Origin: Nitrospirota bacterium | Lineage (GTDB): Bacteria > Nitrospirota > Nitrospiria > Nitrospirales > Nitrospiraceae | NCBI GenBank assembly: GCA_028876065.1 | Contig: JAGWTI010000004.1 | Location: forward strand, 3,547 to 67,546 | Direction of reading: 5' to 3' | DNA length: 64,000 nt | In this document: positions 1 through 28,822 of the stretch, piece by piece | How the letters are laid out: every line of letters starts with the position of its first letter | How positions within the stretch are numbered: the stretch's first letter is position 1 | Translations under genes and position numbers: made by a program | The notes under the pieces: model-generated | The model's database searches: none | Told to the model about the DNA's origin: nothing | What the model saw: only the letters and a program-made list of their open reading frames with translations

Positions 1-36
1 TTCTTTGATCGCTTGCTCGCTGGTGGGGCGGTTCAT
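1..36 (-). CDS. 5' end (12 codons, MNRPTSEQAIKE...) of a gene running off the left edge; product unknown
   Basis: ATG at 36..34 with a GGGAG Shine-Dalgarno (complement of 43..47). An ArsR-type inverted repeat lies just upstream at 60..75. Only 12 codons are visible. Confidence 0.35.
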   Translation of the reverse strand, partial: MNRPTSEQAIKE

Positions 37-59
37 GGTCTTCTCCCTTCTATGCATCT

Positions 60-75
60 ATCAATAAATGTTGAT
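60..75. promoter_or_regulatory. Imperfect inverted repeat ATCAATAAATGTTGAT, candidate ArsR/SmtB-type operator for the gene starting at 36
   Basis: Near-identical to the perfect repeat ATCAAT-AAAA-ATTGAT at 436..451 upstream of the ArsR-family gene. It lies between the arsR-like stop (97) and the next gene's start (36). Confidence 0.35.
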
Positions 76-96
76 GGCTTTGGGTAAAAAAATAGC

Positions 97-423
97 TCAG
101 TCGCAGCAGGGAGCGGCCGGCCTGACTTTCAGCCGTTTGTCCTTGAATGAATCGAGCCATCGCCCGATTTCGCTTATCGCATCATCGTCCAACGAATAGT
201 AAATCCAGCGCCCTTCCCGACGGTCTTTAAGCAGGCCTGCGTCTTTGAGTGTCTTGAGATGAAACGAGAGCCGGGATTGACCGGTTTGGAGAAACTCGGT
301 CAGGTCGCACACACACTGTTCGCCCTCCAGCAGCCGTTCGATGATCTTGAGCCTGGTCTCGTCGGCCAAGGCATGGAACCAGAGGGCTGCCTGCCCCAAG
401 TCTTTGGTGCGCGTCGCAATCAT
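97..423 (-). CDS. ArsR/SmtB-family metalloregulatory transcriptional repressor (108 aa)
   Basis: ATG verified at 423..421. Typical family core 'LADETRLKIIERLLEGEQCVCDL...GQSRLSFHLKTLKDAGLL..RREGRWIYYSL', with a C-terminal Cys pair (..APCCD). Confidence 0.9.
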   Translation of the reverse strand: MIATRTKDLGQAALWFHALADETRLKIIERLLEGEQCVCDLTEFLQTGQSRLSFHLKTLKDAGLLKDRREGRWIYYSLDDDAISEIGRWLDSFKDKRLKVRPAAPCCD

Positions 424-435
424 GCATCACAATGT

Positions 436-451
436 ATCAATAAAAATTGAT
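436..451. promoter_or_regulatory. Perfect 6-4-6 inverted repeat ATCAAT-AAAA-ATTGAT, candidate autoregulatory ArsR operator
   Basis: Located 13-28 nt upstream of the ArsR-family ATG (423). ATCAAT and ATTGAT are exact reverse complements. A second copy lies at 60..75. Confidence 0.4.
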
Positions 452-491
452 TAGTCAAGGGGGTGCGCAGGTGCCTGTCTGGGTTAGGGCT

Positions 492-1295
492 TTAACGGGT
501 GCGCAGCAGTCGTAAATGCCTTCCCGTCAAAGTTCCAATCCGTTCGTGCAGATGGGCCGGCATGGCACGGGCTCGGTCGCGCGCCCGGCGCCAGTCTTGT
601 GCGATGAGGGCCTGCGACTTCAGTCTGAGCTTGGCGGCCAGCTTCCGGAACTGGGCCAGCTCTTCATACTCACCCAGGACGGTTTGGGCTTGTTTGAGCC
701 AGGCCACAAGATCAGGCCTGGCATAGGGCGCGTCGAGCGCCCATTCTTCTTGATAGCGAATGGATTTGATCATGAGCCGGAGACGATGGAGTGTCTTGCG
801 TCGGGGATCGGCTGAGGCCTGGGCGATCAGCTTGCGCAGGCGGTCGGCATGCCGATGCCGCAAGGCGATGAGGTGCCGGCCCATCCAATCGGAAGGGGCC
901 GGGGTGGGGGGGAGGGCATGGCGCTCAACCATGCACTCGACCTTCCTGTAGGTCCGTTTCTTCTTCAGCTTGCCCTCCACGGCCCGGATCCGCTGCGTGA
1001 CGAGCCGACGATCCCGTCCCGGGGCATCGAAGCGGTCCAGATACTGGTCGAACACGTGCAACGTGCGGAGCCGGCTGAAACGGGAGACGCTACGGGCGAT
1101 GATCGCGGCACTGTCTTCTTCCCCCACCAGTTCCAGATACGCTTGCAGGCGCCGCAGATGGGTGCGCAGCCGGTGCAAGGTCTTGGGCCGGCGGTCCCCT
1201 GCCGCCAGGGCTGCCAGCGCGTGCAACGCCGTGGTCCGATACCGAGAGACCCGATCCTGGCCCGCCAGGTGTGTCTGTAGAGTGTGTCCGGCCAT
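492..1295 (-). CDS. CHAD domain-containing protein (267 aa)
   Basis: ATG verified at 1295..1293. Helical, Arg/His-rich, with the repeated CHAD signature 'KTLHRLRTHLRRLQAYLE' and 'KTLHRLRLMIKSIRYQEE'. Confidence 0.8.
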   Translation of the reverse strand: MAGHTLQTHLAGQDRVSRYRTTALHALAALAAGDRRPKTLHRLRTHLRRLQAYLELVGEEDSAAIIARSVSRFSRLRTLHVFDQYLDRFDAPGRDRRLVTQRIRAVEGKLKKKRTYRKVECMVERHALPPTPAPSDWMGRHLIALRHRHADRLRKLIAQASADPRRKTLHRLRLMIKSIRYQEEWALDAPYARPDLVAWLKQAQTVLGEYEELAQFRKLAAKLRLKSQALIAQDWRRARDRARAMPAHLHERIGTLTGRHLRLLRTR

Positions 1296-1382
1296 GGTTC
1301 TTGTCCTGCTATGCCTGCTTCACGCGGGGAATGCGGTTATGGTAGAGTCGTTCCGCCCGCTGAGACGATGAAGGAGAGGCCT

Positions 1383-1886
1383 ATGGACTGTATCCTGTTT
1401 CGACATGGCATCGCCCTGGAGCCGGAGGAGTGGAAGGGGGCCGAGGTCCAGCGGCCGCTGACGCCCAAGGGGGCCGAGCGAGTGCGCGAGGGGGCCGCAG
1501 GGCTCGTGCAACTCGGCGTGGAGCCGACCCATATCCTGTCCAGTCCGCTGCTGCGCGCCTTCGACACCGCGAAAATCATCCGGGACAAGCTGCGGACCCG
1601 CCTGGAAATACTGATCTGCGAAGAGTTGGTGCCGGATGCGTCGCCGGATAAATTGCTGCCCTTGCTGGCCGGCCTTCCCGATGACGCCTGCGTGATCTGT
1701 GTGGGCCATGAACCCCATCTCGGTGAAGCGGCCGGCGTCCTGCTGTTCGGCCGTCCGGCGGCCGGGCTCTCGCTCAAGAAAGCCGGCGCGTGTTGCATCC
1801 GGTTCGAAGGACCGCCGAAAGCCGGGCAGGGCATGTTGCGTTGGTGGTTGGCTCCCTCTCAACTCAGGAGTTTGGGGACCACGTAG
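1383..1886 (+). CDS. sixA: Phosphohistidine phosphatase SixA (histidine phosphatase superfamily)
   Basis: 'ILFRHGIA' (RHG motif), 'LTPKG', 'CVGHEPHLG'. ATG at 1383 follows GAAGGAGAGG; alternative ATG at 1368. The maximal ORF starts at 1284. Confidence 0.8.
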   Translation: MDCILFRHGIALEPEEWKGAEVQRPLTPKGAERVREGAAGLVQLGVEPTHILSSPLLRAFDTAKIIRDKLRTRLEILICEELVPDASPDKLLPLLAGLPDDACVICVGHEPHLGEAAGVLLFGRPAAGLSLKKAGACCIRFEGPPKAGQGMLRWWLAPSQLRSLGTT

Positions 1887-2625
1887 CCGACTCCTCCGCC
1901 GCGGCGGCCGCCCCGGTCGACGCCAATTGGGTCCGGCCGTTCTTGAGCAGGGGCTCGATCTTGACCCGCAGCGCCTCTTGGATTTCCTCCGGCGGCTTGC
2001 GGGCGTCCACCACTTCGAATGTGAACTCCTCGGCCATCTTGTCGAATTCCTCGATCAGCAACCCCTGGTATTTTTTGAAGCTGTCGTAGAGATCGCCCCC
2101 CAGCCGCAAGTCCATCCCGGATTCCCAGAAGTTCATCCCCTTGGTTTCGATGACCCGCAGGGCCAGCGTGTCCACGTCGATCCGCAGGTAGCAGACCAGG
2201 TCGGGAATGACCGCAAAGCCGAAGACATCCCTGATCCAGGACCGGTCCCCGCTGCGGACGAAGTCCCGGGCGAAGGCCGTGTAAATGTACCGGTCGGCCA
2301 ACACGATGAAGCCGGAGCGGAGCGCCGGGATGATCTGATGCTCCAGGCGGTCGGCAAAGTCGGTGGCGTAGAGCAGGCTGAACGACCAACGGTCCAGGAT
2401 GTTGCCCTGCTTGGCCATCTCGATGGTCTTGGACATGAGGTTGGACCGGGTCCAGCCGGTGGTGACCACGCCGTACCCCTGCACCTCGAGCCACTCCTGG
2501 AGCATCTCGATGTGCGTGGAGCGGCCCACGCCGTCGGTGCCCTCGATGGCGATCAGCTTGCCTTTGAGTTCATTCAGATTTTGGTACGGCAAACCGTCGC
2601 CAAAATACTGTCTCGCGTTTTCCAT
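1864..2625 (-). CDS. Thymidylate-kinase-like P-loop kinase, paralog B (253 aa), with Walker A Lys replaced by Arg
   Basis: 'KLIAIEGTDGVGRSTHIEML' (GxxGxGRST), 'LADRYIYTAFARD' (DRY motif). ATG verified at 2625..2623. It overlaps the upstream paralog by 56 nt; a TTG at 2592 would give a 23 nt overlap. Confidence 0.75.
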   Translation of the reverse strand: MENARQYFGDGLPYQNLNELKGKLIAIEGTDGVGRSTHIEMLQEWLEVQGYGVVTTGWTRSNLMSKTIEMAKQGNILDRWSFSLLYATDFADRLEHQIIPALRSGFIVLADRYIYTAFARDFVRSGDRSWIRDVFGFAVIPDLVCYLRIDVDTLALRVIETKGMNFWESGMDLRLGGDLYDSFKKYQGLLIEEFDKMAEEFTFEVVDARKPPEEIQEALRVKIEPLLKNGRTQLASTGAAAAAEESATWSPNS

Positions 2626-3325
2626 GGGTACCCCGTTTCGGCTTGTAATGCTCCAGGGCCTTGAACACCAGCTGGCGCATATCGTTCTGCTGCTCTTCGA
2701 TCTCCTTGGTGGCGTCCATCGTGATCAGCCCGTATTCGCTCACGATCTTGTCGTATTCCAGCAGGATGCGGGACTGGAAGACGCGGAAGCTCTCCGTCAT
2801 GTCCTGGCTCAGGCCCATGTCCATGCCGGCTTCGTAATACTTGAGCTGGGCGCGCATCCCCCCCAGCAACCGGCTGATGGCCACCTCGATCGGCACCTTG
2901 AAGTAAAAGGCCATGTCCGGCCGGACGGCGAACCCGTAGAGCTTGCGCACCCAGGCCGGCGACACGCCGCGCACGGCGTCGCGCGCGAACGCCGTGTAGG
3001 CGTAGCGGTCGGCCAGCACCACCATGCCGGCTTTGAGCGGCGGCAGGATGTCGTAGTAGAGCCGGTTCGCAAAGTCGGTGGCATGGAGCAGGCTGAACGT
3101 CGTGGGGGTGAGGGACTTGTTCTTCTTCCCGCGGCGGGTCGTCTCGCGGACCAGTTCGGACGAATTCCACTCGGTGAAGAAGACGTTGTACCCCTTGGAG
3201 GTCAGCCATTTCTGCAGCAGCAGCAACTGGGTGCTTTTGCCGGAGCCGTCGATGCCTTCCACGATGATCAGCTTGCCGGGGTAGGGATGCGGTTGATTGA
3301 ACGTGATCGGCGGAGGGGGCGTCAT
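2570..3325 (-). CDS. Thymidylate-kinase-like P-loop kinase, paralog A (251 aa), canonical Walker A
   Basis: 'KLIIVEGIDGSGKSTQLLLL', 'LADRYAYTAFARD'. The ATG at 3325..3323 overlaps the ppx stop as ATGA. Confidence 0.8.
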   Translation of the reverse strand: MTPPPPITFNQPHPYPGKLIIVEGIDGSGKSTQLLLLQKWLTSKGYNVFFTEWNSSELVRETTRRGKKNKSLTPTTFSLLHATDFANRLYYDILPPLKAGMVVLADRYAYTAFARDAVRGVSPAWVRKLYGFAVRPDMAFYFKVPIEVAISRLLGGMRAQLKYYEAGMDMGLSQDMTESFRVFQSRILLEYDKIVSEYGLITMDATKEIEEQQNDMRQLVFKALEHYKPKRGTHGKRETVFWRRFAVPKSE

Positions 3326-4884
3326 GCGGAGACTCCTTCACGGGTGAGCGAGCCGACCGCCTCGAACTGGACCGGCCGCTTGAAGACTTTTTCGAAGAGG
3401 TCGGCGCGGTTGCGGGCCGACCAGATTTCCAGCTCGGGGTCGCCGCCGGTTTTGAGCATGATGCGCAAGGGCGTGCCCACCGAGACGCGGAGGTCCTGAA
3501 TCACCGAGAACTGGCTGCGGTCCAAGGCGTCGGCGATGCGGAGCAGCGCGCTGAGGACCTGCACGGCCTTCCGGCTTTTGGGCGGCAGCTCGGCCAAGCC
3601 GGCATGGGTGTCGCGGGGGAGCGCCCGGCGATGGTAGCGCGCGACGTTGGCGATGATGTCCACCTCGTCCGCGGTCAATCCGTAGAGGTCGCTGTGCTTG
3701 ATCAGATAGTAGGCGTGCTTGTGGTGCTGGCGCGAATTGATCAGGTACCCGACGTCGTGGAGGATGGCCGCATACTCCAGCCATTCCCGCTCCCGCTCGC
3801 CCAGCCCGTGCAGGGGCGCGGTTTGATCGAACAGCCGCGTCGCCAGGAACGCGACGTGGTCCGCATGCACCTGGGGATAGTGGCAGCGCCGCGCCAGGTA
3901 GACGACGTTGCGGCGGCGGACGTTGGGGATCTCCTGCTCGGTGCGGAGACGGTCCCGGTGGCGCGCAATGAAGTCGTAGATGAGCCCTTCCCGGATCGCC
4001 TTGTCGCTGACCGTCATCTGTTCGTGCCCGGTCCGGTCCATGAGACTGCGGAACACCATGGCGGCCGGCAACAGGGTGTCGGCTCGCTTCGGGTCCAGGC
4101 CGGGGATCGCCAGCCGGTCCTTGAAGCTGGCATGGGTCAGCAGGCTTTCCACCGCCTGGATTTCCTTGCGGGTGATGCGGGTCAGGTTGATCTGGGTCAG
4201 GGGGCGGCCGGTGCGGCGCAGATAGATGACTTCGGTGAGGTTCGCGGCCATGCCGGAGGTGGCCACCAGGCGCTCGAACGACTTGGTCTTGAACTGTCGC
4301 AGCGCCTCCTTGAGTTGCTGATCGACGGCTTCTTGCAGTTTCTTGAGCATGGCCTTGGTGGGCGGGTCCTGCCGGAGATAGAGGTCTTTCAGCCGGATCG
4401 CGCCGAGCTTGAGGCTTTGGGCCTGAGCCATGGCCTCGCGGTTGCCGACGATCAGTTCCACCGACCCGCCGCCCACGTCCACGACCAGCGTCGGCTCCTC
4501 GGACAGGTCCATGCTGTGGCGAACGCCCAGGTAGATCAGGCGGGCTTCTTCCTGCCCCGTCACCACGCGCACCCGGAGCTTGGTCTGCCGGGCGATCTCT
4601 TCGATGAACTCGCCCCCGTTCTTGGCCTCGCGCACGGCGCTGGTGGCGACGGCCTTGATCCGGTCGTAGCCCTTGTTGCGGGCCAGGGTGGTGAGCGTCC
4701 GGATGACTTCCAGCGCGCGGGTCATGGCGGCTTCCGAGAGGCGGCGGGTCTTGAAGGCCCCGTCGCCCAGGCGGGTCATGTCTTTGAACCGATCCAGGAC
4801 CTTGTAGGAAAAGTCCGGCTCGACCTCCGCCAAGACCATGTGGATCGAGTTGGTGCCGATGTCGAGGACCGCAAGCTTGGCCAT
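3322..4884 (-). CDS. ppx: Ppx/GppA-family exopolyphosphatase / guanosine pentaphosphate phosphohydrolase with C-terminal HD domain (520 aa)
   Basis: 'LAVLDIGTNSIHMVLAEV', 'VDVGGGSVELI' (ASKHA fold), and the HD region 'AAILHDVGYLI..HHKH..YLI'. ATG verified at 4884..4882. Confidence 0.9.
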   Translation of the reverse strand: MAKLAVLDIGTNSIHMVLAEVEPDFSYKVLDRFKDMTRLGDGAFKTRRLSEAAMTRALEVIRTLTTLARNKGYDRIKAVATSAVREAKNGGEFIEEIARQTKLRVRVVTGQEEARLIYLGVRHSMDLSEEPTLVVDVGGGSVELIVGNREAMAQAQSLKLGAIRLKDLYLRQDPPTKAMLKKLQEAVDQQLKEALRQFKTKSFERLVATSGMAANLTEVIYLRRTGRPLTQINLTRITRKEIQAVESLLTHASFKDRLAIPGLDPKRADTLLPAAMVFRSLMDRTGHEQMTVSDKAIREGLIYDFIARHRDRLRTEQEIPNVRRRNVVYLARRCHYPQVHADHVAFLATRLFDQTAPLHGLGEREREWLEYAAILHDVGYLINSRQHHKHAYYLIKHSDLYGLTADEVDIIANVARYHRRALPRDTHAGLAELPPKSRKAVQVLSALLRIADALDRSQFSVIQDLRVSVGTPLRIMLKTGGDPELEIWSARNRADLFEKVFKRPVQFEAVGSLTREGVSA

Positions 4885-4890
4885 AGAAGC

Positions 4891-4919
4891 AGCTTAGAAG
4901 GGGCGAGGCGGCAAGTCAA
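4891..4919 (-). promoter_or_regulatory. Sigma-70-like promoter TTGACT-N17-TAAGCT placed so that transcription would start at or next to the ppx ATG (leaderless)
   Basis: The minus strand reads TTGACT (4919..4914), a 17 nt spacer, TAAGCT (4896..4891), 6 nt, then ATG (4884). No Shine-Dalgarno lies in front of the ppx ATG. Confidence 0.35.
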
Positions 4920-5078
4920 TCAGCTGTTTTTTCAGTGAAATCATATATCTCCGAATGTCGCCTGGATGCCGGGCGGAGCGAACGGGCAAATTCCTTCTGT
5001 CGGAGCAGGCCCACGTTGAGCGGCCTTTTCACATCCAAGCGGCACAGGTGATGGTCTCCCGACGTGCAACGGCTCAGT

Positions 5079-5747
5079 TTATGACGGAACCGGAGGGGCG
5101 GTGTGCCGGATGATCTTGCCTTCCACCATGTAGACCACCAGTTCCGCCATGTTGGTGGCGTGGTCGGCGATGCGCTCGATGTACTTGCCGATGAACGTCA
5201 GCCGGATGGCCCGCGTGATCGTTTTGGGATCCTCGATCATGAACGAGAGCAGCTCGCGGAACAACTGCTCCGTCAGATCGTCCACGAAGTCGTCGTCGGC
5301 GCAGACTTTTCTGGCCAAGGCCGCGTCGTGGCGCACGAAGGCATCCAGCGTTTCTTTGACCATGCGCATGGTCCAGTTCGCCATGCGCGGCAAGTCGATG
5401 TAGGGCTTGAGCTGGGGTTCCTCGTTGAGTTCGAGGGCCCGCTCGGCGATGTTCTCGGCCAGATCGCTCATCCGTTCCAGCTCGGTGGAGAGTTTCATGG
5501 CGGTGGTCACGAACCGCAGATCTCCCGCCGTCGGCTGTTGCAGGGCCAGGACCCGGACGCAGTTCTCGTCGATCTCGACATCCATGGCGTTGACGGTCCG
5601 GTCGTTGGCGATGATCCGGCGGGCCAACTCCGAGTCCCGGTCGACCAGGGCTTTCATGGCGTCTCGGATCTGTTGTTCGACGAGACCGCCCATGCGGAGG
5701 ATCTGCTCGTTGATGCGGGCCAGCTCTTCGTCCAAATGACGTTGCAT
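5079..5747 (-). CDS. phoU: Phosphate signalling complex protein PhoU (222 aa)
   Basis: Two PhoU repeats ('D..VN..D.EIDE', 'ERI.DHA.N'). ATG at 5747..5745 with a GGGGAG SD. Confidence 0.95.
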   Translation of the reverse strand: MQRHLDEELARINEQILRMGGLVEQQIRDAMKALVDRDSELARRIIANDRTVNAMDVEIDENCVRVLALQQPTAGDLRFVTTAMKLSTELERMSDLAENIAERALELNEEPQLKPYIDLPRMANWTMRMVKETLDAFVRHDAALARKVCADDDFVDDLTEQLFRELLSFMIEDPKTITRAIRLTFIGKYIERIADHATNMAELVVYMVEGKIIRHTAPPVPS

Positions 5748-5760
5748 AACTCCCCCGTGC

Positions 5761-5951
5761 GCAGGATGTTGAAAAAGTCCGCCAGCGTTGTTCTCGCGGC
5801 GCTCAGAGGCTCACCATACGGAAAGACAGGAGGCAAAGTACTTCTCCGCTCGCATGTGATCGAAGCGAGCGGTTCAAGCAAAGCTTGGTATGTACCGCGT
5901 CGCCTCTTCGCTGGCTGCGGCCTCGCTGGACGGCCTTTTTGACCGTCCTGC
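5761..5951. other. About 190 nt long imperfect palindrome (nested hairpin) in the pstB-phoU spacer; structured RNA or MITE-like element
   Basis: The outer arms 5761..5787 (gcaggatgttgaaaaagtccgccagcg) and 5924..5951 (cgctggacggcctttttgaccgtcctgc) are largely complementary. A concentric perfect 8 bp stem CCGCTCGC/GCGAGCGG sits at 5846..5853 and 5865..5872. Confidence 0.4.
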
Positions 5952-6011
5952 TGGGCGTGAGGCGTGAACCGTGACGCGACAATAGGCCCTGATGCGACTG
6001 CCGTCACGGTT

Positions 6012-6925
<914 letters not shown>

Positions 6926-6929
<4 letters not shown>

Positions 6930-8596
6930 ACGGCGGAGGCGGCGTAGCGTTTGCGCAAGTGGTTGCGAATCATCACCGCCACCAGGTTCAGCAAGACCAC
7001 GACCGCGATCAGCGTCAGCGTGGTCATGTAGACCATCGGCTTGGCCGCTTCCACGTTCGGAGATTGGAAGCCGACGTCGTAGATGTGAAACCCCAGGTGC
7101 ATGAACTTGCGGTCCAGGTGCAGGAAGGGAAACTGTCCGTCCACCGGAAGGTCCGGGGCGAGCTTGACCACGCCGGTCAGCATCAGCGGCGCCACTTCGC
7201 CGGCCGCGCGGGCCATGGCCAGGATCAAGCCGGTCAGAATGCCGGGGAGGGCGCAGGGCAGCACCACATGCCGGATGGTTTCCAGCTTCGTCGCCCCCAG
7301 GGCGATGGACCCTTCCCGGAAATCCCGCGGCACGGACGAGAGCCCTTCTTCCGTGGCGACGATCACGACCGGCACGGTCAGCAGGGCCAGCGTGAGCGAC
7401 GCCCAGAGGATGCCGCCGGTTCCATAGGTGGGGTTGGGAAGCGCTTCGGGAAAGAAGAGCGCATCGACGGTCCCGCCGACGGTGTAGACGAAGAAGCCCA
7501 AGCCGAACACGCCGAACACGATCGAGGGCACGCCGGCAAGGTTGTTGACCGCGATGCGGACAAGCTGGACCAAGGGCCCCTGGCGGGCATATTCCCGCAA
7601 ATACAGGGCCGCCATGACGCCGAAGGGCATGACGGCGACCGTCATGATCAGGACCATCATGACCGTGCCGAAGATCGTGGGGAAGATGCCGCCCTCGGTG
7701 TTGGCTTCCCGCGGTTCGCCGGAGAGGAACTCCCAGAGGTTGCCCAAGTACGTCAAAGTTTTCAGGGACCAATCCATCTCGTTCGGGCGCAGCGCGGTGA
7801 TGACCTTTGACAGGGGAAGCCGGACTTCCTGCCCCGTGGACAGACTCACGGCGACTTCGTAGGCGCCGGCCTGGCGACGCAGGCTGTCCAGGGTAGCCGC
7901 CTGGCGTTGGTACTCCTCTTCCAGGCCGGCCATGGTTTGCTGAAGACCCAGGTCGGTCGTGGTCTCGTCGTCGGTCAGGCGGTTGTCGAGCCGTAAGGCT
8001 TGCCGCTGGAGGCGCAGGGACTCCAGCCGGCGGTTGATCTCGCCGATCTCGTCATGCTCGATCCGGTGAATGCGCTCGTGCAGCCGGTTGGCCTGTTCGA
8101 TCAGCGGCAACAAGGCCGGCCAGGCGGCGGGGCCTTCCGCGACCGGCGCCGCCTCGCGATAGAGGGCGCGCACGCGCCCATAGAGCGGCCCCCATTCCCG
8201 TCGGTTGAAGACCGTCAGGTCGAACGGCTTGGCTTGTGCGACGACGGCGTCCGCGTCCACCCACTTGAAGTCGTAGCCGAAGGCGTCCTGGTTGCCGACG
8301 CGGAATCGCGTGCGCCGTTTGCCGTCCGGATGGGCCTGGCTCGTCGAATGGGGAATCGTCTCGCTGTTGATCGGCTGGCCGATCAGGGTCCGGCCGTCGG
8401 CGAGCCGGATTTCCAGGATGTCCGCCGGCCAGAACTGTCCCAGCCCCTTGACCATGATCAGGCCCAGCAACGCGCCGATCATCAGGAGGCTGAGCGCGAC
8501 GCCGGAGGCGGTCAGCCAGACGAAGAGTTCGCCGCTCTTCCAGAACGCCTTGAGGGGGGCGCGTGTCATGGCGTGGCCGCCTCTCGCGTCATGCAT
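6926..8596 (-). CDS. pstA: Phosphate ABC transporter permease PstA, long form with a large N-terminal periplasmic/coiled-coil insert (about 556 aa)
   Basis: C-terminal permease core '[25 protein letters not shown]'. ATG at 8596 (8 nt overlap with pstC) or at 8569. Confidence 0.9.
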
Positions 8597-10919
8597 GGCC
8601 GTGTCTGCTCTTCAGCCGCTGCCGCACGACCTCGGCGACGGTGTTGACGGCGAACGTGACGACGAACAACAGCAGGGCGGCCAGGAACAAGACGCGGTAG
8701 AGGGTGCCGCCGTGCGGCGCTTCCGGGATCTCCACGGCGATGTTGGCCGAGAGGGTGCGAAACCCGTTGAACCAATTCCACTCCATGATCGGCGTGTTCC
8801 CGGTCGCCATCAACACGATCATGGTCTCGCCGATCGCCCGACCGAACCCGATCATGACGGCGGAGAAGATGCCGGGGCTGGCCGCGAGCAGCACCATGTG
8901 GACGACGGTTTGCCAGCGGGTCGCGCCGAGCGCCAGCGAGCCGGCGACGAGGTTGCGCGGCACGTTGGACAGGGCTTCTTCGGAGATGCTGTAGATGATG
9001 GGGATGATGGCCATGCCCATGACGATGCCCACCACCACCGCGTTGCGTTGGTCGTACCGCAGGCCGAACGCCTGCGCCAGCCACACCTTAAAGTTGCCCT
9101 GGAAGAGGATCTGTTCGATCGCGTCGTTGCCGAGCAGGCACAAGAGGATGCCGCCTGCCAGCAGCGGAATCAGCCAAAACGCTTCGGCGCCGTGGTGAAA
9201 ACGATGACGGAACGACCGGGGGCAGAGGCGCCAGAGAAAGGCCGCGAGCAGGACCAGGGTCGGCAGCACGACGGCCATGCCGACGAGCGCCGGGAAGAGC
9301 CGCTCCAGCAAGGGGGCCAGCCAGAGCCCGGCCAGGAAACCCAGGACGACGGTGGGCAGGGCCGCCATCATTTCGATGGCGGGCTTGATCGCGGCGCGCA
9401 GGGAGGGATGCATGAACTGCGAGGTGAACAGCGCCGCCAGGATGGCGAGCGGAATGGCCAGCAGGAGCGCATAGCAGGTACCTTTGAGCGTGCCGAAGGC
9501 CAGCGGAGCCAAGCCCAGCTTGGGTTCGAAATCGTCCGAGCCGGACGAGGACTGCCACACCTGCGCCGGCCCGTCGTAGCCTTCGTACCAGACCGGCCTG
9601 AACAGCGTTCCCCAGGTCACTTCCGGGTGGGGATTGTGAAGGTCGTACAAGGTCAGCCGGCCTCCGGCATCGTAGGTCAGCAGGCCGTCGGCTTTGGGCG
9701 CGAGGGCCACCGAGACCAGGGGAGCCCCCGTCCCGGGCAACTGCAGCAGCGTCCGTTCGGACGTGGCGTGACGGAGGTAGGCAGCACCGAGCGCGTCTCC
9801 GGTCACGAACCCCTTGTCACGTTGCGAGGAGGAAAACGTCGTGACGGAAGCCCGTTGAGGGCCGAAGCGGTGATTTTGCCGGAGCGCCCAGCCGCCCGGC
9901 TGGCTGGGATCGCGGACTTGTACCCAGGTGGACACGGATCCGTTCCTGGTCATGACGACGAGCGAGCGGTCGCCGATCAGGAATCCCAATTGGGTGACGG
10001 CATCGTCCGTTCCTTCGGCCGGATAGGCGCCGGCCCACTCGGCGCGGTCCGGCGTCGTGAGCCGAACATGGTGGACCTGGCCTTGATCTGTGCCGACATA
10101 GAGATTCAGCAGGGGGGCATCCAGGGCGACGGCGGAAAGCCGGCCTTGCACCTGCGGGAGTGGAACCCTGGAGAGCCCCGCTTCGGAGCCGTGTTCGTCC
10201 GACTCCGATCCCAAGCGGATCAGGGCCAATTCGCCGGACTCTGTGACGGCCGCGATGCCGCTTCCGTGGTCGCCCGCGCGGTAGGCCAGGGCGGTGATCG
10301 GGACGTCGGCCAGCTTGATCGGCGTTGCGGCGGCGATGGAGGGTTGTTTGGCTCTGGCGCCGGATTCGAGCCGAACAGTGGTGATGGCGATCTTGATCGG
10401 AATGACGAGCCCGTCGGCGGTTCCGACCATGTGGCCGGAGAGGGGATTGCCGGATTGCGCCATGGCCGTGATGCGTTTGCCTTGTAACGCAGGCGGCAGC
10501 TCGACGGGCATCACCCGCCCGCTCTCGAGCTCCAGAAAGACGATCCCGTCTTGCTTGATCACGTAGGCCAGATTCCGATGTTCGTCCAGTCCGATCAAGG
10601 CCGGCTCGTCGGCGGCGGGAGGCTTGGCCAGGGAGGTCTGGGCGATCGGTCGGGCGGTCGCCGGCAGGAAGAGGGGAGCCACTTCCATGACGAGAAATGC
10701 CAGCATCGCCAAGATGCTCGCGATCACCGCGATGCCGCCTAAACTGATGATCCGTTTGGCCAACCGATCGAGGAAGGGGCGGAGCCAAATGGTATGGATG
10801 GAGACAGGCAGGGGCGCGCGACGTCTCGGTGCCGGTTGGCGGGCTGTCGTTTCAGGGCGGCGCGACGGCTGGGGAAGGAGGAGCAACCGGGCTTCTTGAT
10901 CTTTCACCACATCCGCCAT
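8589..10919 (-). CDS. pstC: Phosphate ABC transporter permease PstC, long form with an N-terminal periplasmic domain of about 430 aa
   Basis: C-terminal permease core 'EALSNVPRNLVAGSLALGATRWQT...GRAIGETMIVLMATGN'. ATG at 10919. The ORF-track start at 10937 is a TTG. Neither start has a clear SD. Confidence 0.9.
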   Translation of the reverse strand: MADVVKDQEARLLLLPQPSRRPETTARQPAPRRRAPLPVSIHTIWLRPFLDRLAKRIISLGGIAVIASILAMLAFLVMEVAPLFLPATARPIAQTSLAKPPAADEPALIGLDEHRNLAYVIKQDGIVFLELESGRVMPVELPPALQGKRITAMAQSGNPLSGHMVGTADGLVIPIKIAITTVRLESGARAKQPSIAAATPIKLADVPITALAYRAGDHGSGIAAVTESGELALIRLGSESDEHGSEAGLSRVPLPQVQGRLSAVALDAPLLNLYVGTDQGQVHHVRLTTPDRAEWAGAYPAEGTDDAVTQLGFLIGDRSLVVMTRNGSVSTWVQVRDPSQPGGWALRQNHRFGPQRASVTTFSSSQRDKGFVTGDALGAAYLRHATSERTLLQLPGTGAPLVSVALAPKADGLLTYDAGGRLTLYDLHNPHPEVTWGTLFRPVWYEGYDGPAQVWQSSSGSDDFEPKLGLAPLAFGTLKGTCYALLLAIPLAILAALFTSQFMHPSLRAAIKPAIEMMAALPTVVLGFLAGLWLAPLLERLFPALVGMAVVLPTLVLLAAFLWRLCPRSFRHRFHHGAEAFWLIPLLAGGILLCLLGNDAIEQILFQGNFKVWLAQAFGLRYDQRNAVVVGIVMGMAIIPIIYSISEEALSNVPRNLVAGSLALGATRWQTVVHMVLLAASPGIFSAVMIGFGRAIGETMIVLMATGNTPIMEWNWFNGFRTLSANIAVEIPEAPHGGTLYRVLFLAALLLFVVTFAVNTVAEVVRQRLKSRHGHA

Positions 10920-10963
10920 GGGTGTAATCGCAACCAACGGTTTTTGGTTTCGAATAGATGGCG

Positions 10964-11017
10964 AGCATAGGCGGCCGCCGTTTCCGGCTCGTTTCCCGGT
11001 CGTTAATAGCGTGTTAA
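10964..11017 (-). promoter_or_regulatory. Candidate Pho-box promoter: four direct repeats phased at exactly 11 bp, followed by a -10-like TATGCT
   Basis: The minus strand reads TTAACAC-GCTA-TTAACGA-CCGG-GAAACG-AGCCG-GAAACG-GCGGCCGCC-TATGCT. The AAC cores fall at positions 3, 14, 25 and 36. The last repeat ends 9 nt before the -10 hexamer. The site is 27-98 nt upstream of the pstC starts. Confidence 0.4.
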
Positions 11018-11018
11018 A

Positions 11019-11243
11019 TCAATGAACGGGAACCGGACGCCGGCGGGCGAGAGAGACTTCGTACTCAAAGCCGCGGCGGCGGAGGAGAATGGCTCCGCGT
11101 CTGCTGAGGCCGTCGATAAGATGGAACAATTCACACCAGGTCAGCTCGGGCAGGGCGGCCGCGACTTGTTCGATGGTCAGGCACCCGGCGCGATCCAGCA
11201 GTTGAAGCACCAAGGACTCGTTGCGAGAAACGGTGCAGGGCAT
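11019..11243 (-). CDS. Small (74 aa) winged-helix-like protein, function unknown
   Basis: ATG at 11243..11241 with an AGGGGG SD at 6 nt spacing. 'LVLQLLDRAGCLTIEQVAAALPELTWCELFHLIDGLSRRGAILL' has an HTH-like pattern. A paralog lies at 37206..37499. Confidence 0.55.
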   Translation of the reverse strand: MPCTVSRNESLVLQLLDRAGCLTIEQVAAALPELTWCELFHLIDGLSRRGAILLRRRGFEYEVSLARRRPVPVH

Positions 11244-11281
11244 GAGCGCCCCCTTTGTTGTAACCGGTCGATGACGAGAGG

Positions 11282-11485
11282 TTACCCGATGGCTCGGGCA
11301 ACCTCTCGATGGATGGCGAGCGACAGATCCTTGCTCGCGCATCGATAGACGGGACAGGGCTGATGGAGTCCCGTTTCGCAGTACTGCATCCGCTCGCTCA
11401 AGCTCGGCTTGAACGGCACGATGATCGCATAGCACAGGGCCGTCGTTCCGCTCGTCTCCTGGTCCACAAAATGCGGACAGCTCAT
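11282..11485 (-). CDS. Small (67 aa) Cys-rich protein, function unknown
   Basis: ATG at 11485..11483 preceded by a strong AAGGAGGTGA SD. Five Cys residues (C3, C18, C36, C43, C48). The ORF-track extension to 12013 is unlikely. Confidence 0.55.
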   Translation of the reverse strand: MSCPHFVDQETSGTTALCYAIIVPFKPSLSERMQYCETGLHQPCPVYRCASKDLSLAIHREVARAIG

Positions 11486-11831
11486 GTCATTCACCTCCTT
11501 TCTTTGCGGTTTCCTCGCCCCGGGTGCCCTTCCCAGGGGGCACACCCTGGAAAGGACCCGAGGCTCACAGGGGAACGTGACGATCGCCAGTCTAGATGTT
11601 CGGCGTCTCATTCTGATTAAGCGCAGATTGCCGGCAGGTAAATTTTGGAGGCCGAATGCCGATTGAGCCGTCTTGGCTGGACCGGGGAACGGAGCGCCGG
11701 GCCAGCGAGGCGGGTGCACAATTAACGGGAAGTTAACTTGAGGGGATTGCCGCCGTTCCGATATAGCCTCCAGCGGGACCGTCCGAGATCGTCCACGGCA
11801 GGCCGCGGAAACGGCACAAGGAGAATCCACT

Positions 11832-16887: not shown

Positions 16888-19800
16888 TTACGGCTTGCCC
16901 GCAAACCGTCTATAGAGCGTCGGTATGACGAAGAGCGTGAGTAAGGTGGATGTCATGAGCCCTCCGATCACCACCGTCGCCAACGGGCGTTGCACTTCCG
17001 CGCCCATGCTGTTGGCCAGCGCCATGGGAAGAAAGCCCAGGCTGGCGACCATCGCCGTCATGAGAACCGGGCGCAGACGGTCCATCGTGCCTTGTGTCAC
17101 GGCCTGTTCGATGGGCAGCCCGTCGGCCTCGAGCCGGCGGATGTGGCTGACCAGGACCACGCCGTTGAGGACCGCGATCCCGAACAAGGCGATGAATCCG
17201 ATGGCGGCGGAGATACTGAGCGGGAGCCCGCGGAGCCAGAGAGCCAGGACTCCACCAGACAGGGCCAGCGGCACGTTCAGGAAAATCAGCAGCGCGGGCC
17301 GCAGGGAGCCGAAGGTGACCGACAAGATCCCCACAATCATCAGGAGCGTAGCCGGGACCACGACGGCCAGTCGGCGCGACGCGTCCTGCAAGTGCGCGAA
17401 TTGACCGCCCCACTTGAGTTCGTACCCGATCGGCATCGAGACCGATTCGGCCACCGTTCGCTGCGCCTCCGCCATGAAGCTGCCCAGATCGCGTCCCCGG
17501 ATGTTGCATTCCACGATCGTGCGGCGCTGGACATCTTGCCGGCTCACTTGGGCCGGCCCGGAGGTCACCAGGATCGTCGCCACGCGCGACAGGGGCACCA
17601 GTTCGCCATGCACGGTCGGGATCAGGAGGTTGCCCAAGGCGCCTGGGTCGGCCGACGCCTCTTCGGCTAAGCGGACGACCAGCTCGAACCGTCGGTGCTC
17701 CTGCACCACCGTGCCCACGACGCGGCCCACGCGGGTCACCTGGACCAGATCGAGGACTTCCCCCGCCGTCAAACCATACCGGGCGATCTGATCCCGGTCC
17801 ACGATGACGCGGATCAGGGGCAGGCCGGCGATCTGCTCGACCTTGATGTCCGCCGCGCCTGGGACCCGCTCCAGCGCGCGAGCCACCGCCTCGGCCTTCT
17901 GCTTGAGCACCGCGAAGTCCGGCCCGAAGATCTTGATGGCCAGGTCCGAGCGCGTGCCCGCGATCAATTCGTTGAACCGCATCTCGATCGGTTGCGTAAA
18001 GCCGAGCCCCACACCGGGGACTTCGTTCATGACCGCCGACTGCATGGCGATAATGAGCCCTTCCCGCGTCCGCGCGGTCGTCCAATCCCGGCGGGGCTTC
18101 AGGGTCACGAAGGTATCCGACATCTCCACGCCCATCACATCCGTCGCGACTTCGGGACTGCCGGTTCTCGTGACGATCTGGGTCACCTCCGGGAAGCGAC
18201 GAAGGACCCGCTCCACCTGAAGGGCCGTCGAGACGGATTCGCTGAGCGAGACGCTGGGGAGACGCCATATCTGGATGGCCAGGTCCCCTTCATCCAGCCG
18301 GGGCACAAACTCGATGCCGAGCGTCGTGCCGATGCCGAGACTGGTCAGGAACAGCCCGATGGCCAAGCCGGAGACCCGGTTGGGACGTGTCATCGCCCAG
18401 TGGAGGCATGGGACATAGGCCCGCCGAAGAAGGGCGGTGACCCGTGTTTCCTCCTCGGCCTTCGTGGGGCGGGCGAACCAGAAGGCGAGGACCGGCGTGA
18501 CGGTGACCGCAAGCAGGAGGGAACCGACCAAGGCGAAGATCACGGTCACGGCCATCGGGCGAAACATCTTCCCCTCGATCCCCGTGAGCGTCAGAATCGG
18601 GAGGTACACGAGGACGATGATCCCGACCGCAAAGCCGACCGGGCGCAACACCTCACGGCCCGCCGCGTGAATCGTCGCCAGCTTCTCCTCGGGCGACGCA
18701 GGCCCTTGCCGGGACAGGCGTCGCAGGATGTTGTCGATCATCACGACCGATCCATCCACCAACAGTCCGAAGTCGATGGCGCCGAGACTCATCAGATTCC
18801 CGGAAAGTCCGACCTGGACCATCCCGGTGAAGGCGATGAGCATCGACAGCGGGATGGCCGACGCGACGATCAAGCCGGCGCGGAGATCCCCCAGGAACAA
18901 GAAGAGGACCGCGACGACCAGCAGCCCTCCTTCGAAGAGATTGTTCCGAACGGTTCGAATCACGTTCGAGACGAGCAGGGTCCGGTCATAGTAGGGGACG
19001 ATGACCACGCCGGGCGGGAGCGTGGTCTGGATTTCCCGGACTCTGGCCTTGACGCGCTCGACCACCTGCTGCGCATTCTCCCCGGCGAGCATCTGCACCA
19101 TGCCGATAATCGTCTCGCCCTGTCCCATGGCCGTCGCCGCGCCGATCCGAAGGGCGGGGGCCTCGGTGACTTCGGCCACATCCTTGACGAAGATCGGCAC
19201 CCCGCCGGGCCCATGGTCCACCACGATCCGGACCAAGTCCGCCGTCCGCGTCGCCAACGCTTCCCCCCTGATGAGCAATTGCTCGCGCTGATGTTCGATG
19301 TACCCGCCGCCCACCATCGCGTTGTTCCGTTCCAACGCCTCGAAGACCTGTCGCAGCGACAACCGGTAGGCCAGGAGTTTGGCGGGATCGACGAGGACCT
19401 GGTACTGCTGCGTCTCGCCTCCCCAGATGTTGACCTCGACGACACCGGGAACCGCCCGCAGTCGCATCCCGATGTCCCACTCGAGGAGGGTCCGCAAGGC
19501 CATGGCGCTGTACCCTTCGCCTCGGAGGGTGAACTGGTAGACCTCGCCCAATCCGGTCGTCAGCGGTCCCATGATCGGGCGGCCGTATTCCGGCGGAATG
19601 CGTTCAACGGCTCGGCCGAGGCGTTCGCTCACCAGTTGCCTGGCCCGATAGATGTCCATGTCGTCGCCGAAGATCGCGGTCACCGCCGACAGGCCGTAGC
19701 GCGAAACCGAGCGCGTCTCCCGGAGACCGGGGAGCCCGCTCAGCGAGGCTTCGATCGGGAACGTCACGAACTGTTCGACTTCGACCGGGCCCAGAGCCGG

Positions 19801-19956
19801 CGCGCGGGTGAGAATCTGGACCTGCACCGGCGTCAAGTCCGGCATGGCATCGATGGCGAGATGGGTCATCGACCACAGCCCGATCGTGACGGCCATGAGC
19901 ATCGCGACGAGCGTGAAGAAGCGGTAGCGGAGCGAGAGGGTCAGCACGCGATCCAT
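16888..19956 (-). CDS. czcA: Heavy-metal efflux RND transporter, CusA/CzcA family (1022 aa)
   Basis: Full-length 12-TM RND protein. The TM4 signature 'GAIDFGLLVDGSVVMIDN' is the DFG..DG..(V/I)(E/D)N type of divalent-cation HME pumps. ATG verified at 19956. Confidence 0.9.
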   Translation of the reverse strand: MDRVLTLSLRYRFFTLVAMLMAVTIGLWSMTHLAIDAMPDLTPVQVQILTRAPALGPVEVEQFVTFPIEASLSGLPGLRETRSVSRYGLSAVTAIFGDDMDIYRARQLVSERLGRAVERIPPEYGRPIMGPLTTGLGEVYQFTLRGEGYSAMALRTLLEWDIGMRLRAVPGVVEVNIWGGETQQYQVLVDPAKLLAYRLSLRQVFEALERNNAMVGGGYIEHQREQLLIRGEALATRTADLVRIVVDHGPGGVPIFVKDVAEVTEAPALRIGAATAMGQGETIIGMVQMLAGENAQQVVERVKARVREIQTTLPPGVVIVPYYDRTLLVSNVIRTVRNNLFEGGLLVVAVLFLFLGDLRAGLIVASAIPLSMLIAFTGMVQVGLSGNLMSLGAIDFGLLVDGSVVMIDNILRRLSRQGPASPEEKLATIHAAGREVLRPVGFAVGIIVLVYLPILTLTGIEGKMFRPMAVTVIFALVGSLLLAVTVTPVLAFWFARPTKAEEETRVTALLRRAYVPCLHWAMTRPNRVSGLAIGLFLTSLGIGTTLGIEFVPRLDEGDLAIQIWRLPSVSLSESVSTALQVERVLRRFPEVTQIVTRTGSPEVATDVMGVEMSDTFVTLKPRRDWTTARTREGLIIAMQSAVMNEVPGVGLGFTQPIEMRFNELIAGTRSDLAIKIFGPDFAVLKQKAEAVARALERVPGAADIKVEQIAGLPLIRVIVDRDQIARYGLTAGEVLDLVQVTRVGRVVGTVVQEHRRFELVVRLAEEASADPGALGNLLIPTVHGELVPLSRVATILVTSGPAQVSRQDVQRRTIVECNIRGRDLGSFMAEAQRTVAESVSMPIGYELKWGGQFAHLQDASRRLAVVVPATLLMIVGILSVTFGSLRPALLIFLNVPLALSGGVLALWLRGLPLSISAAIGFIALFGIAVLNGVVLVSHIRRLEADGLPIEQAVTQGTMDRLRPVLMTAMVASLGFLPMALANSMGAEVQRPLATVVIGGLMTSTLLTLFVIPTLYRRFAGKP

Positions 19957-19957
19957 C

Positions 19958-21163
19958 TCACCCTCCCTCGCCCGACTGGATGCGCTCTTTCAGCAGCACG
20001 TTCTTGAGGTCGAAGACGCCGTCGGTGACGACCCGGTCCCCGGCGGTCAGGCCGCTTCTGATTTCGACCCATCCCTCTCCTTCACGACCCACCTCGACCG
20101 GCGCGAAGAGGTAGCCGGCGTCACGCTGGGTGAAGACCCCGCGGGTCTGATCGAGCAACGTCACGGCCGCCGCCGGCACGGCCAGCGTGGGGGAGGCGGT
20201 CACGGCCAGCCGGACCTCCACATATTCCTGCGGCTTGAGACGTCCGTCCTGGTTGGCCACTTCGAACCGCACACGGACCGTCCGTGTCTTCTCGTCGGCG
20301 AGGGGCGAGATGTAGGTGAGGGGCGCGGTGAGCGGCGCGGCGCCTTTGGGCACGATCATGGCGTTGTCGCCCGCGTTGAACCGGCGCGCCTGTTCGATCG
20401 TCAGGCTGGCGAAGATCCACACGTGGCTCGTATCGACGATCTCGAACAGTTCGATGCCCGACGACACCCCTTGCCCGAGCACGATGTGTTGCGCCACCAC
20501 GGTGCCGGCGATCGGCGACTTAATGGTATAGCGATGTCCTTCGACATGCTGGTCCCGCTCCAACTGCTGCAGCTCTCCCGCGGTCATCCCCATGTTCAGC
20601 AGCTTTTCACGGGCATGTTGATAGCGGGCCTTGGTTTCGAGATGACGGCCGCGCTCTTCCACCAGCCGCCGTTCCGTGATGATCTGCTCGGTCCACAATT
20701 TCTGTGCCCGCTGGAAACTGTTTGCGGCCACGTCGGCTTGCGCTTTGGACACGAGATACTCTTGGACCAGTTCGTCCAGCTTCGGCCCTCCGATCGCGAC
20801 GAGCGGCTGCCCGCTGCGGACGTGGTCGCCCAGTTGCACGTGGACCTGCTCCACTTGGCCTTCGATTCGGGAGGTGACTTTTGCGACTTGCTTGAGGTCG
20901 AGGGCCACCTCGCCCGGTGCGGCGACCATCTCGGGAATCGGGCGCATGGCGGCAGCCTCCGTCCGTATCCGGCCGTGAATCGCCGGAGGAGCCTGGATCA
21001 GATGCGGACCCGAATGTCCCGGTCGGGCCGCATGGGGGGGAGCCGTCGCCGGCTCGCCGCTCTGGTTCCCGCAGCCGATCAGCAAGAGGGCCGCCGCCAA
21101 GGCGATCCATCCTCTCCGTGCAATCCGACCGTCGTTCGCGGCGCTCCTGTTGGGCGGGTTCAT
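19958..21163 (-). CDS. czcB: Efflux RND periplasmic adaptor (MFP), CzcB-like lipoprotein (401 aa)
   Basis: The ATG at 21163..21161 overlaps the czcC stop as ATGA. Lipobox 'LLIGC'. Typical barrel-sandwich/hairpin motifs ('V.SRIEG.V..V.V..GD.V..GQPL'). The ORF-track extension to 22102 is rejected. Confidence 0.9.
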   Translation of the reverse strand: MNPPNRSAANDGRIARRGWIALAAALLLIGCGNQSGEPATAPPHAARPGHSGPHLIQAPPAIHGRIRTEAAAMRPIPEMVAAPGEVALDLKQVAKVTSRIEGQVEQVHVQLGDHVRSGQPLVAIGGPKLDELVQEYLVSKAQADVAANSFQRAQKLWTEQIITERRLVEERGRHLETKARYQHAREKLLNMGMTAGELQQLERDQHVEGHRYTIKSPIAGTVVAQHIVLGQGVSSGIELFEIVDTSHVWIFASLTIEQARRFNAGDNAMIVPKGAAPLTAPLTYISPLADEKTRTVRVRFEVANQDGRLKPQEYVEVRLAVTASPTLAVPAAAVTLLDQTRGVFTQRDAGYLFAPVEVGREGEGWVEIRSGLTAGDRVVTDGVFDLKNVLLKERIQSGEGG

Positions 21164-22449: not shown

Positions 22450-22566
22450 TGCGTTCCTCACGTAGAGAGCCGCCGCGCGGGAGCGGACGGACGACGCCGT
22501 CCTGCTCGCGGGCCGCCTGCGATCCACAAGAAAGGCTTGTGCTAATTCAGGAAGCGTGAAGTTGTG

Positions 22567-23013: not shown

Positions 23014-23110
23014 CAACGACGCGAGGGCAATATTGCCTTGAATCAAAAGTAGACTAACACAGCGCTTCCCATGGGGCAACCGCGTCGGGAGTTTCTCCCT
23101 GCAACGGCCG

Positions 23111-24550: not shown

Positions 24551-24554
24551 TGAG

Positions 24555-25937: not shown

Positions 25938-25977
25938 GAAGGGCCTGCTCCTCTCAATGGGGCGATGGAGATCGGGG

Positions 25978-27471: not shown

Positions 27472-27557
27472 GGTGCCTCCTTATTCTTTAGCTCAAGACC
27501 CTCGGAACACGCGCACCAGCCGGTTCGCGACAGGTCTGTCAAGAGGGGAGAGGCCTG

Positions 27558-28775: not shown

Positions 28776-28822
28776 GCCTGGCCTCCTTCTATTCGCGCCA
28801 TGAAGTGCATGATGGCTTCAAC

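Follow-up and report, generated by a model that had tools for sequence, protein, structure and literature searches.

Results

Two paralogous kinase-fold genes behind ppx

The window analysed in this work is a 64-kb stretch of DNA from a Nitrospirota bacterium, and it contains, immediately behind a gene for a Ppx/GppA-type exopolyphosphatase and on the same strand, two adjacent genes, here called A and B, whose products are named as thymidylate (dTMP) kinases in the database (Table 1). We establish here the homology, orthology, residue signatures, fold and gene context of both proteins, and on these grounds it is very likely that they are the catalytic and the regulatory subunit of a family-3 polyphosphate (polyP) kinase, PPK3, the heteromeric polyphosphate kinase named by Hofmann et al. 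(JBC 2026, PMC12995831; bioRxiv 10.1101/2024.08.28.610084). Relatives of A and of B are called c and r subunits below, after the cPPK3 and rPPK3 of that work.

A and B are true paralogs with 41% identity (E 6e-59). A preliminary description of this DNA had reported the pair of open reading frames (ORFs), its paralogy and the coupling of A to ppx through an ATGA, in which the stop of ppx and the start of A are shared (3322-3325); these statements are borne out, its coordinates are exact, and every motif that it quoted is present, namely GIDGSGKST in A, GTDGVGRST in B, and LADRY(A/I)YTAFARD, FSLL(H/Y)ATDFA(N/D)RL and (Y/W)E(A/S)GMD(M/L) in the two proteins. The excess of about 40 amino acids (aa) over a typical Tmk, also described there, is composed of an N-terminal extension, a lid insertion of ~11 residues and a C-terminal tail predicted with low confidence.

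The two genes overlap by 56 nucleotides (nt), as had been described, while the alternative overlap of 23 nt, given for a TTG start of B, has this length only without the stop codon and comes to 26 nt with it. The TTG start was rejected, since this codon specifies a Leu inside a conserved N-terminal motif of the r subunits, [FY][FY]GxG[LI]P[YG], which is found ~20 aa ahead of the P-loop in nearly all of them outside the Sulfolobales. Thus, the ATG at 2625 is the real start of B and the 56-nt overlap is real. Overlaps of the same type, 53-56 nt long, recur in the Nitrospirota loci L003-L015 of the survey described below, where one stretch of 53-56 nt codes for both the tail of A (VFWRRFAVPK..., with a low predicted local distance difference test score, pLDDT) and the conserved N-terminal motif of B. 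Only the motif of the B frame is conserved in lineages whose genes do not overlap, and the tail of A therefore looks like an overprinted extension.

Table 1. Genes and sequence features of the pair and its surroundings, in window coordinates
Feature	Position	Strand	Remarks
cPPK3-like catalytic subunit (paralog A), 251 aa	2570..3325	(-)	NCBI MDE3034511.1, database name 'dTMP kinase'
rPPK3-like regulatory subunit (paralog B), 253 aa	1864..2625	(-)	NCBI MDE3034512.1, database name 'thymidylate kinase'
Walker A of A, G24-I-D-G-S-G-K30-S-T32	3230..3256	(-)	Lys30 codon 3236-3238; Lys in 84/84 c subunits
DRY of A, D106-R107-Y108	3002..3010	(-)	Arg in 84/84 c subunits
Degenerate Walker A of B, G29-T-D-G-V-G-R35-S-T37	2515..2541	(-)	Arg35 codon CGC, 2521-2523
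Retained DRY of B, D111-R112-Y113	2287..2295	(-)	
r-specific N-terminal motif of B, Y7-F-G-D-G-L-P-Y14	2584..2607	(-)	
Dual-coding overlap, 56 nt	2570..2625	(-)	A C-terminal tail and B N-terminus; stop included
Ppx/GppA exopolyphosphatase with C-terminal HD domain, 520 aa	3322..4884	(-)	PF02541 3e-65, PF21447 4e-30, HD
phoU	5079..5747	(-)	PF01895 2e-48
pstB	6012..6929	(-)	ABC_tran 1.5e-30; start 6929 (ATGA-coupled to pstA) or 6896 (GGGAGAG before it)
pstA, long form, 556 aa	6926..8596	(-)	BPD_transp_1
pstC, long form, 782 aa	8589..10937	(-)	BPD_transp_1
SixA-type phosphohistidine phosphatase	1383..1886	(+)	Convergent with B, 23-nt 3' overlap; AAGGAG precedes start 1383
CHAD-domain protein	492..1295	(-)	PF05235 8e-09
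ArsR-family regulator	97..423	(-)	HTH_5 7e-15; adjoins the CHAD gene

Assignment to the dTMP kinase superfamily and loss of the dTMP site

Both proteins match PF02223 (Thymidylate_kin; 1e-22 for A and 2e-18 for B), and the pair belongs to the dTMP kinase (dTMPK) superfamily. Against TIGR00041, the dTMP-kinase equivalog of NCBIfam with a cut-off of 83.25 bits, A passes marginally with 86.9 bits and B stays below with 69.0. The best match of both among solved structures is STK_15430 (ST1543) of Sulfurisphaera tokodaii, deposited as 'dTMP kinase' (PDB 2plr/4nzy/4rzx/5h70), with E values of 4e-54 for A and 2e-48 for B against 2plr/5h70; the canonical Tmk structures follow at 1e-10 to 1e-13, the best of them for A at 3e-13. 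The AF2 models of A (pLDDT 86) and B (pLDDT 84) superpose on 5h70 with TM-scores of 0.95 (root-mean-square deviation 1.3 Å) and 0.93, respectively, which makes STK_15430 the best fold match as well, ahead of canonical Tmks at ~0.82-0.88. STK_15430 shares with A the motifs TEWNSS, KK(K/N) and HATDF, but it is a c-type protein only, crystallised without a partner, with 213 aa and no terminal extensions.

Membership of the pair in the PPK2 family was rejected, as neither protein matches PF03976 at E <= 0.01 and the 50 best fold matches of each model include no PPK2. The two-domain class II PPK2 of P. aeruginosa, PA3455, is nevertheless similar in design, being a P-loop kinase with an active and an inactive homologous module, the latter used for oligomerisation and activation, and with an equilibrium towards polyP-driven nucleotide phosphorylation (PMC12995831). 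It differs in its family, in the fusion of the modules into one chain, in the acceptor, which is AMP/GMP instead of ADP, and in the location of the ADP and polyP sites, which are swapped with respect to PPK3 (PMC12995831).

The database names, the PF02223 matches, the score of A above the TIGR00041 cut-off and the deposition of STK_15430 could all be taken to mean that A, possibly together with B, is a housekeeping dTMP kinase placed beside phosphate genes by chance. We regard this as extremely improbable. In A, in B, in all or nearly all of 84 c subunits and in at least 75 of the 78 aligned r subunits, the residues by which the E. coli enzyme recognises the base and the phosphate of dTMP are replaced: R39 of the TREP motif by E in c and G in r, F74, which stacks on the thymine, by H in c and Y in r, R78, which contacts the thymine O4, by F in both, and Q109, a base contact, by R in both; T105 of the dTMP site is replaced by A, with the exception that in r this position is variable (L, A or I). 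The dTMP-binding residues are thus gone from A and from B, while Walker Lys, DRX Arg and lid Arg are all still present in A. Compared with canonical Tmks (E. coli 4tmk, Aquifex 2pbr), the P-loop kinase fold, the Walker A and DRX motifs, the lid region and the ATP-binding side are conserved, whereas the identity to the pair is 20-27%, the dTMP site of the pair is replaced and its lid carries the insertion; furthermore, Tmks are homodimers in another genomic context and not a heteromeric pair. The behaviour of the archaeal orthologues, the reported presence of a canonical dTMPK elsewhere in PPK3 hosts and the conservation of the c-r pairing and of the ppx/sixA linkage across phyla, all presented below, point in the same direction. 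The TIGR00041 model evidently captures cPPK3 as well.

Comparison with the PPK3 of Sulfolobus

In S. acidocaldarius the operon reads sixA-ppx-saci_2019-saci_2020-CHAD (PMC12995831). Saci_2019, of which STK_15430 is a homologue, is cPPK3 and performs ATP-dependent polyP synthesis without any dTMP kinase activity, the true dTMP kinase of the organism being encoded by a separate third gene, Saci_0893; Saci_2020 is rPPK3, inactive alone and able to activate Saci_2019 ~10-fold (PMC12995831). The complex, SaPPK3, is an α2-β2 tetramer catalysing a reversible reaction in which ADP + polyP -> ATP is strongly preferred, with ADP and, weakly, GDP as acceptors and no use of nucleoside monophosphates (NMPs). 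The same authors place PPK3 in a distinct clade of the dTMPK superfamily, describe it as mainly archaeal with "a few" bacteria, predict as PPK3 those bacterial paralogs that lie beside PPX, SixA, CHAD, PstC or PstS, state that all PPK3 hosts encode a canonical dTMPK elsewhere, and ascribe the inactivity of rPPK3 to a lost DRX arginine (PMC12995831).

The window shows the same arrangement of adjacent dTMPK-fold paralogs, c and then r, directly after ppx, with SixA and CHAD in the locus, and both the ppx-c-r order and the 4-nt overlap of ppx and c are identical in the S. acidocaldarius locus (L001) and in the window. The identity between A and Saci_2019 is 50% and they have the same invariant residues, B groups with the r subunits in the tree, neither subunit retains the dTMP site, and the c protein is basic and the r protein is not. 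By synteny, phylogeny and residue signatures, A and B are orthologous to Saci_2019 and Saci_2020.

Several differences accompany this likeness. The host of the window is a bacterium, its genes stand behind pstCAB-phoU and its sixA is on the opposite strand; its ppx codes for 520 aa with an HD domain as compared to 411 aa; both A and B are ~40 aa longer, and the c/r overlap is 56 nt instead of 22 nt. B has Arg for the Walker Lys and keeps the DRX Arg, whereas Saci_2020 has a Lys in a degenerate P-loop, GIMSSGKT, and DGY in place of DRX. B also carries the N-terminal [FY][FY]GxG[LI]P[YG] extension that the r subunits of Sulfolobales do not have, and the host of the window, in contrast to Sulfolobus, probably has PPK1/PPK2 too.

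Distribution, gene linkage and phylogeny

A scan with a c-type alignment over one genome per GTDB species gave a relative in at least 568 species and provided 80 loci for the survey; the pair is carried by at least 568 species representatives, mostly bacterial, and a HMMER search of the whole library gave 365 clusters at 50% identity (E <= 1e-30). The loci belong to about a dozen phyla, with Nitrospirota, Planctomycetia, Acidobacteriota, Bacteroidota, Ignavibacteriota, Thermodesulfobacteriota, Binatia, Chloroflexota, Armatimonadota, Eisenbacteria, Longimicrobiales and Nitrososphaerales among the groups represented.

The linkage that the preliminary description proposed to look for is conserved. 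Directly after c, on the same strand, comes an r-like gene in 80 of the 81 loci that leave room for it. Among 83 loci, 64 contain ppx, which in 60 lies no more than 2.5 kb away from c, 47 contain sixA and 16-19 contain pstB/phoU. CHAD was detected in 3/83, an underestimate caused by the insensitivity of tblastn with divergent CHAD queries, and this count is not used as evidence. The lone exception to the pairing is a metagenome-assembled genome (MAG) of Thermoproteota (L068:1833-5172), in which the gene after ppx(HD)-cPPK3 is CHAD-like and lies on the opposite strand, with no r gene within 1.7 kb. The 87 loci retrieved (L001-L086 and the window) showed no third tmk in their flanks.

A neighbour-joining tree with 200 bootstraps was built with capped distances from the domain envelopes defined by the hidden Markov model, for 84 c and 78 r subunits. 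Without an outgroup, c and r are split in 194 of the 200 replicates, A grouping with Saci_2019 and B with Saci_2020. When the Tmks of E. coli, Vibrio and Pseudomonas are included as outgroup, the c clade, with A inside it, is recovered in 189/200, so that the comparison with canonical Tmk proposed beforehand sets it apart from them.

Fused forms exist among the HMMER matches: c-r (P0242, 460 aa), c and r together with a Ppx-GppA domain III/HD (P0248, 696 aa), an MFS transporter with a Tmk-like domain and DUF2252/APH (P0287, P0278), and giant polyvalent-type fusions with an InPase pyrophosphatase domain (P0272, P0335), one of which also contains ART-PolyVal.

Residue signatures of the two subunits

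In the 84 c subunits K30, R107 of the DRY motif, R152, R158, K162, K67, K68, K69, R217 and the TEWNSS motif are invariant or nearly so, and A has every residue that is invariant across the set. Conserved in c and not in r are K30, E52-W-N-S-S56, K67, K68, K69, R158, K162 and R217. The r subunits are devoid of the basic residues of the lid and of the patch, as R158 is not conserved, K162 is replaced by D/N and the K68/K69 patch is gone; B shows this r signature, having Arg in place of the Walker Lys, G52, R55, Y81 and, at lid position 162, an acidic residue. The mean net charge of the domain is +4.6 in c and -2.9 in r (+6 in A and -6 in B), and c is more positive than r in 69 of 78 pairs. Taking the invariance of the basic residues and the domain net charge as a proxy for the conservation of the polyP cleft, these signatures fit a basic polyP cleft present in c only, as described in PMC12995831.

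The analysis of the r subunits leads to a hallmark different from the published one. Arg occupies the position of the Walker Lys in 80 of the 81 aligned r subunits of bacteria and Nitrososphaerales and in 3 of 4 from Sulfolobales (83/84 in total), whereas the DRX Arg is kept in 80 of the 81 aligned (DRY in 80/84 in total) and the change to DGY is limited to the four Sulfolobales r subunits examined (L084:3626-4243, L085:3624-4256, L086:3627-4262 and L001:6621-7253). Those of S. tokodaii, M. sedula and a Thermoprotei MAG combine GSGR with DGY, and Saci_2020 alone has GIMSSGKT. Since Lys -> Arg with DRY is found in nearly all r subunits and DGY in Sulfolobales only, we read the loss of DRX as specific to Sulfolobales and not as defining the family: judged from the alignments, the Walker Lys -> Arg change is the ancestral r signature, the DRX loss is an addition of Sulfolobales and Saci_2020 is an outlier. 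The DRX arginine whose loss the PPK3 paper states for the r subunit is retained in B (D111-R112-Y113). That the hallmark of r differs from the published rationale may be new, as may the occurrence of the pair in at least 568 species representatives.

Since B keeps DRY, it may still bind nucleotide and could behave unlike Saci_2020. Following this line, the complex would be of the PPK3 type, with the Sulfolobus model transferring in part, and the bacterial r subunit, and with it that of nearly every PPK3 carrier outside Sulfolobales, would be a ligand-binding pseudokinase rather than a dead scaffold: B would bind a nucleotide or the end of a polyP chain, either as an allosteric sensor of energy charge or phosphate that gates A, or as a second active site of other specificity. 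An Arg at the Walker Lys in almost every r subunit is a specific and selected substitution, in a P-loop that is otherwise complete, and not random decay; E23, G24, D26, G29, S/T31, T32, D84, D106, R107, Y108, R115 and R152 are conserved in r, which also has an N-terminal motif of its own, and the DRX Arg is missing in Sulfolobales only. Walker Lys-to-Arg mutants of P-loop NTPases usually retain nucleotide binding, which counts in the same sense. However, the absence of the lid basic residues and of the K68/K69 patch and the acidic character of r speak against it, as does the inactivity of Saci_2020 alone (PMC12995831), and we consider a ligand-binding r subunit rather unlikely, though by far less so than the dTMP kinase reading.

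The phosphate genes around the pair

The neighbours named in the preliminary description, CHAD, SixA, Ppx/GppA-HD, PhoU and PstCAB, were all found by Pfam or NCBIfam matches. SixA scores 72.6 bits with TIGR00249, slightly below the cut-off of 74.5, and also matches His_Phos_1. The position of the CHAD gene is common to the window, to the Nitrospira loci L003 and L004 and to the Sulfolobus operon, and the ArsR gene has the same position in L003 and L004, being a neighbour conserved across Nitrospirota. CHAD proteins bind polyP granules.

The gene upstream of A belongs to the Ppx/GppA family and has an HD domain, and the Tmk fold is also the fold of NMP kinases; on this basis the pair could be imagined as an ATP-dependent kinase for other NMPs or for (p)ppGpp-related substrates, tied to a GppA-like activity of the upstream product. 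The upstream gene is, however, best classified as an exopolyphosphatase (282 bits with TIGR03706, 204 with the GppA model), SaPPK3 used ADP and GDP with polyP only and no NMP (PMC12995831), invariant basic residues that suit a polyanion have taken the place of the NMP site, and the CHAD and pst neighbours indicate polyP. We regard such a function as highly implausible.

With ppx coupled to A, pstCAB-phoU upstream and SixA and CHAD adjoining, the locus is a module of phosphate uptake and polyP turnover. As had been described, there is no ppk in the window: Pfam searches of 51 of its larger ORFs (mostly >=100 aa) revealed neither ppk1 nor ppk2 nor a third tmk-like gene, and tblastn with A and B as queries against all six frames of the 64 kb gave no further relative. 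A scan for promoters and terminators in positions 1-11500 yielded nothing exceeding the shuffled expectation.

The pst genes themselves vary. The window has long pstC and pstA (782 and 556 aa, 6926-10937) and no adjacent pstS, whereas Nitrospira sp. Kam-Ns4a has, in the same position before pstB-phoU-ppx-c-r (L003:3939-6821), pstS and short pstC and pstA of 306 aa each. In the closed genome of Kam-Ns4a ppx is called as two genes of 159 and 355 aa directly upstream of cPPK3 (L003:8452-10004), which points to a possible frameshift or sequencing error. The window also contains, at a distance of ~30 kb from pst, two adjacent genes for phosphate-selective porin O/P (PF07396, 40734-43922), a further element of phosphate acquisition.

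Other parts of the window are of a different nature. The region 16888-36666 is dense in efflux genes, with three AcrB-type RND pumps (16888-19956, 28823-32083 and 33382-36666), four tandem genes for outer-membrane efflux proteins (21160-27471) and an HlyD/CusB-type adaptor (27558-28775). In 45959-51681 two long ORFs of the same strand overlap by ~1.1 kb in different frames, a CHASE3/PAS histidine kinase (45959-49123) and a DsbH-thioredoxin/aldo-keto-reductase protein (47977-51681); as no domain of the kinase is recognised before residue 461, its true start probably lies further downstream.

Discussion

The pair of the window very probably belongs, as a bacterial member under a wrong annotation, to a known family. 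What the preliminary description had proposed is essentially right and already published (PMC12995831). Its heterodimer of a catalytic and a degenerate or regulatory subunit agrees with the homologous Saci_2019/Saci_2020 as to the heteromer and the two roles, not as to the dimer, the characterised complex being α2-β2; its polyP-linked action on nucleotides agrees with SaPPK3 as to polyP, while the acceptor there is ADP or GDP and not dTMP or another NMP. The (p)ppGpp-related substrates that it also considered have found nothing in their support, and its view that A and B are not housekeeping dTMP kinases stands, with the dTMP residues lost and the orthologue Saci_2019 devoid of that activity. 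The main text of the PPK3 paper makes no mention of Nitrospira in either version, and no paper joining PPK3 with Nitrospira was found.

For the activity, stoichiometry and reaction direction of A and B we rely on the characterised homologue, and we propose the following mechanism. A, as cPPK3, would bind ATP or ADP through its normal P-loop Lys, the DRY Arg and the lid Arg, while the polyP chain would be accommodated in the basic cleft, at the place where thymidylate kinase holds dTMP. B, as rPPK3, with Arg for the Walker Lys, without the basic residues of lid and patch and acidic overall, would be non-catalytic and would assemble with A and activate it, probably in an A2B2 tetramer as in Sulfolobus. 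The transfer of phosphate between polyP and ADP/ATP would be reversible and, by analogy with SaPPK3, a low ATP/ADP ratio would lead to ATP from polyP, with polyP made only at a high ratio. Translational coupling behind ppx would provide near-equal amounts of A and B, Pst and PhoU would supply and gauge phosphate, Ppx would trim polyP and the CHAD protein would mark the granule.

Some observations weigh against this assignment. The activity is extrapolated from an archaeal enzyme with which the identity is 50% for A and ~31% for B, and A lies slightly above the NCBIfam dTMP-kinase equivalog cut-off (86.9 vs 83.25 bits). B, with its DRY kept, is without the lesion used in PMC12995831 to explain the inactivity of rPPK3. 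The monophyly of r is weak with an outgroup (56/200) and the root is therefore uncertain, and a canonical tmk was not found in the part of the host genome that was searched, the 64-kb window. Finally, PPK1/PPK2 are reported from Nitrospira genomes (PMC7078480), so that the host does not necessarily rely on PPK3 as its main polyP synthase; PPK3 is probably an additional polyP enzyme and not the sole one.

Despite this, the identification of A and B as PPK3 subunits, which we still hold to be very likely, has consequences for annotation. Thousands of database entries like A and B are named dTMP or thymidylate kinase, and NCBIfam 20.0 contains no PPK3 model and a dTMP-kinase equivalog that admits cPPK3; recognising the pair corrects reconstructions of both the pyrimidine and the polyP pathways. 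The family is wider than the published "a few" bacteria: most of its members here are bacterial, and it spans at least 568 species representatives and 365 clusters formed at 50% identity. The hallmark of r, Walker Lys -> Arg with DRY kept, in place of the published rationale, bears on how the regulatory subunit works, and if r were a ligand-binding pseudokinase, the Sulfolobus enzyme, the sole one characterised, would be a derived outlier and the general regulatory mechanism of PPK3 would be still undescribed. In soils and wastewater plants, nitrite oxidation and comammox are mainly the work of Nitrospira. In these bacteria a polyP:ADP phosphotransferase beside Pst, PhoU and Ppx, as predicted from the archaeal enzyme, would offer a route from stored polyP to ATP in starvation, besides the reported PPK1/PPK2.

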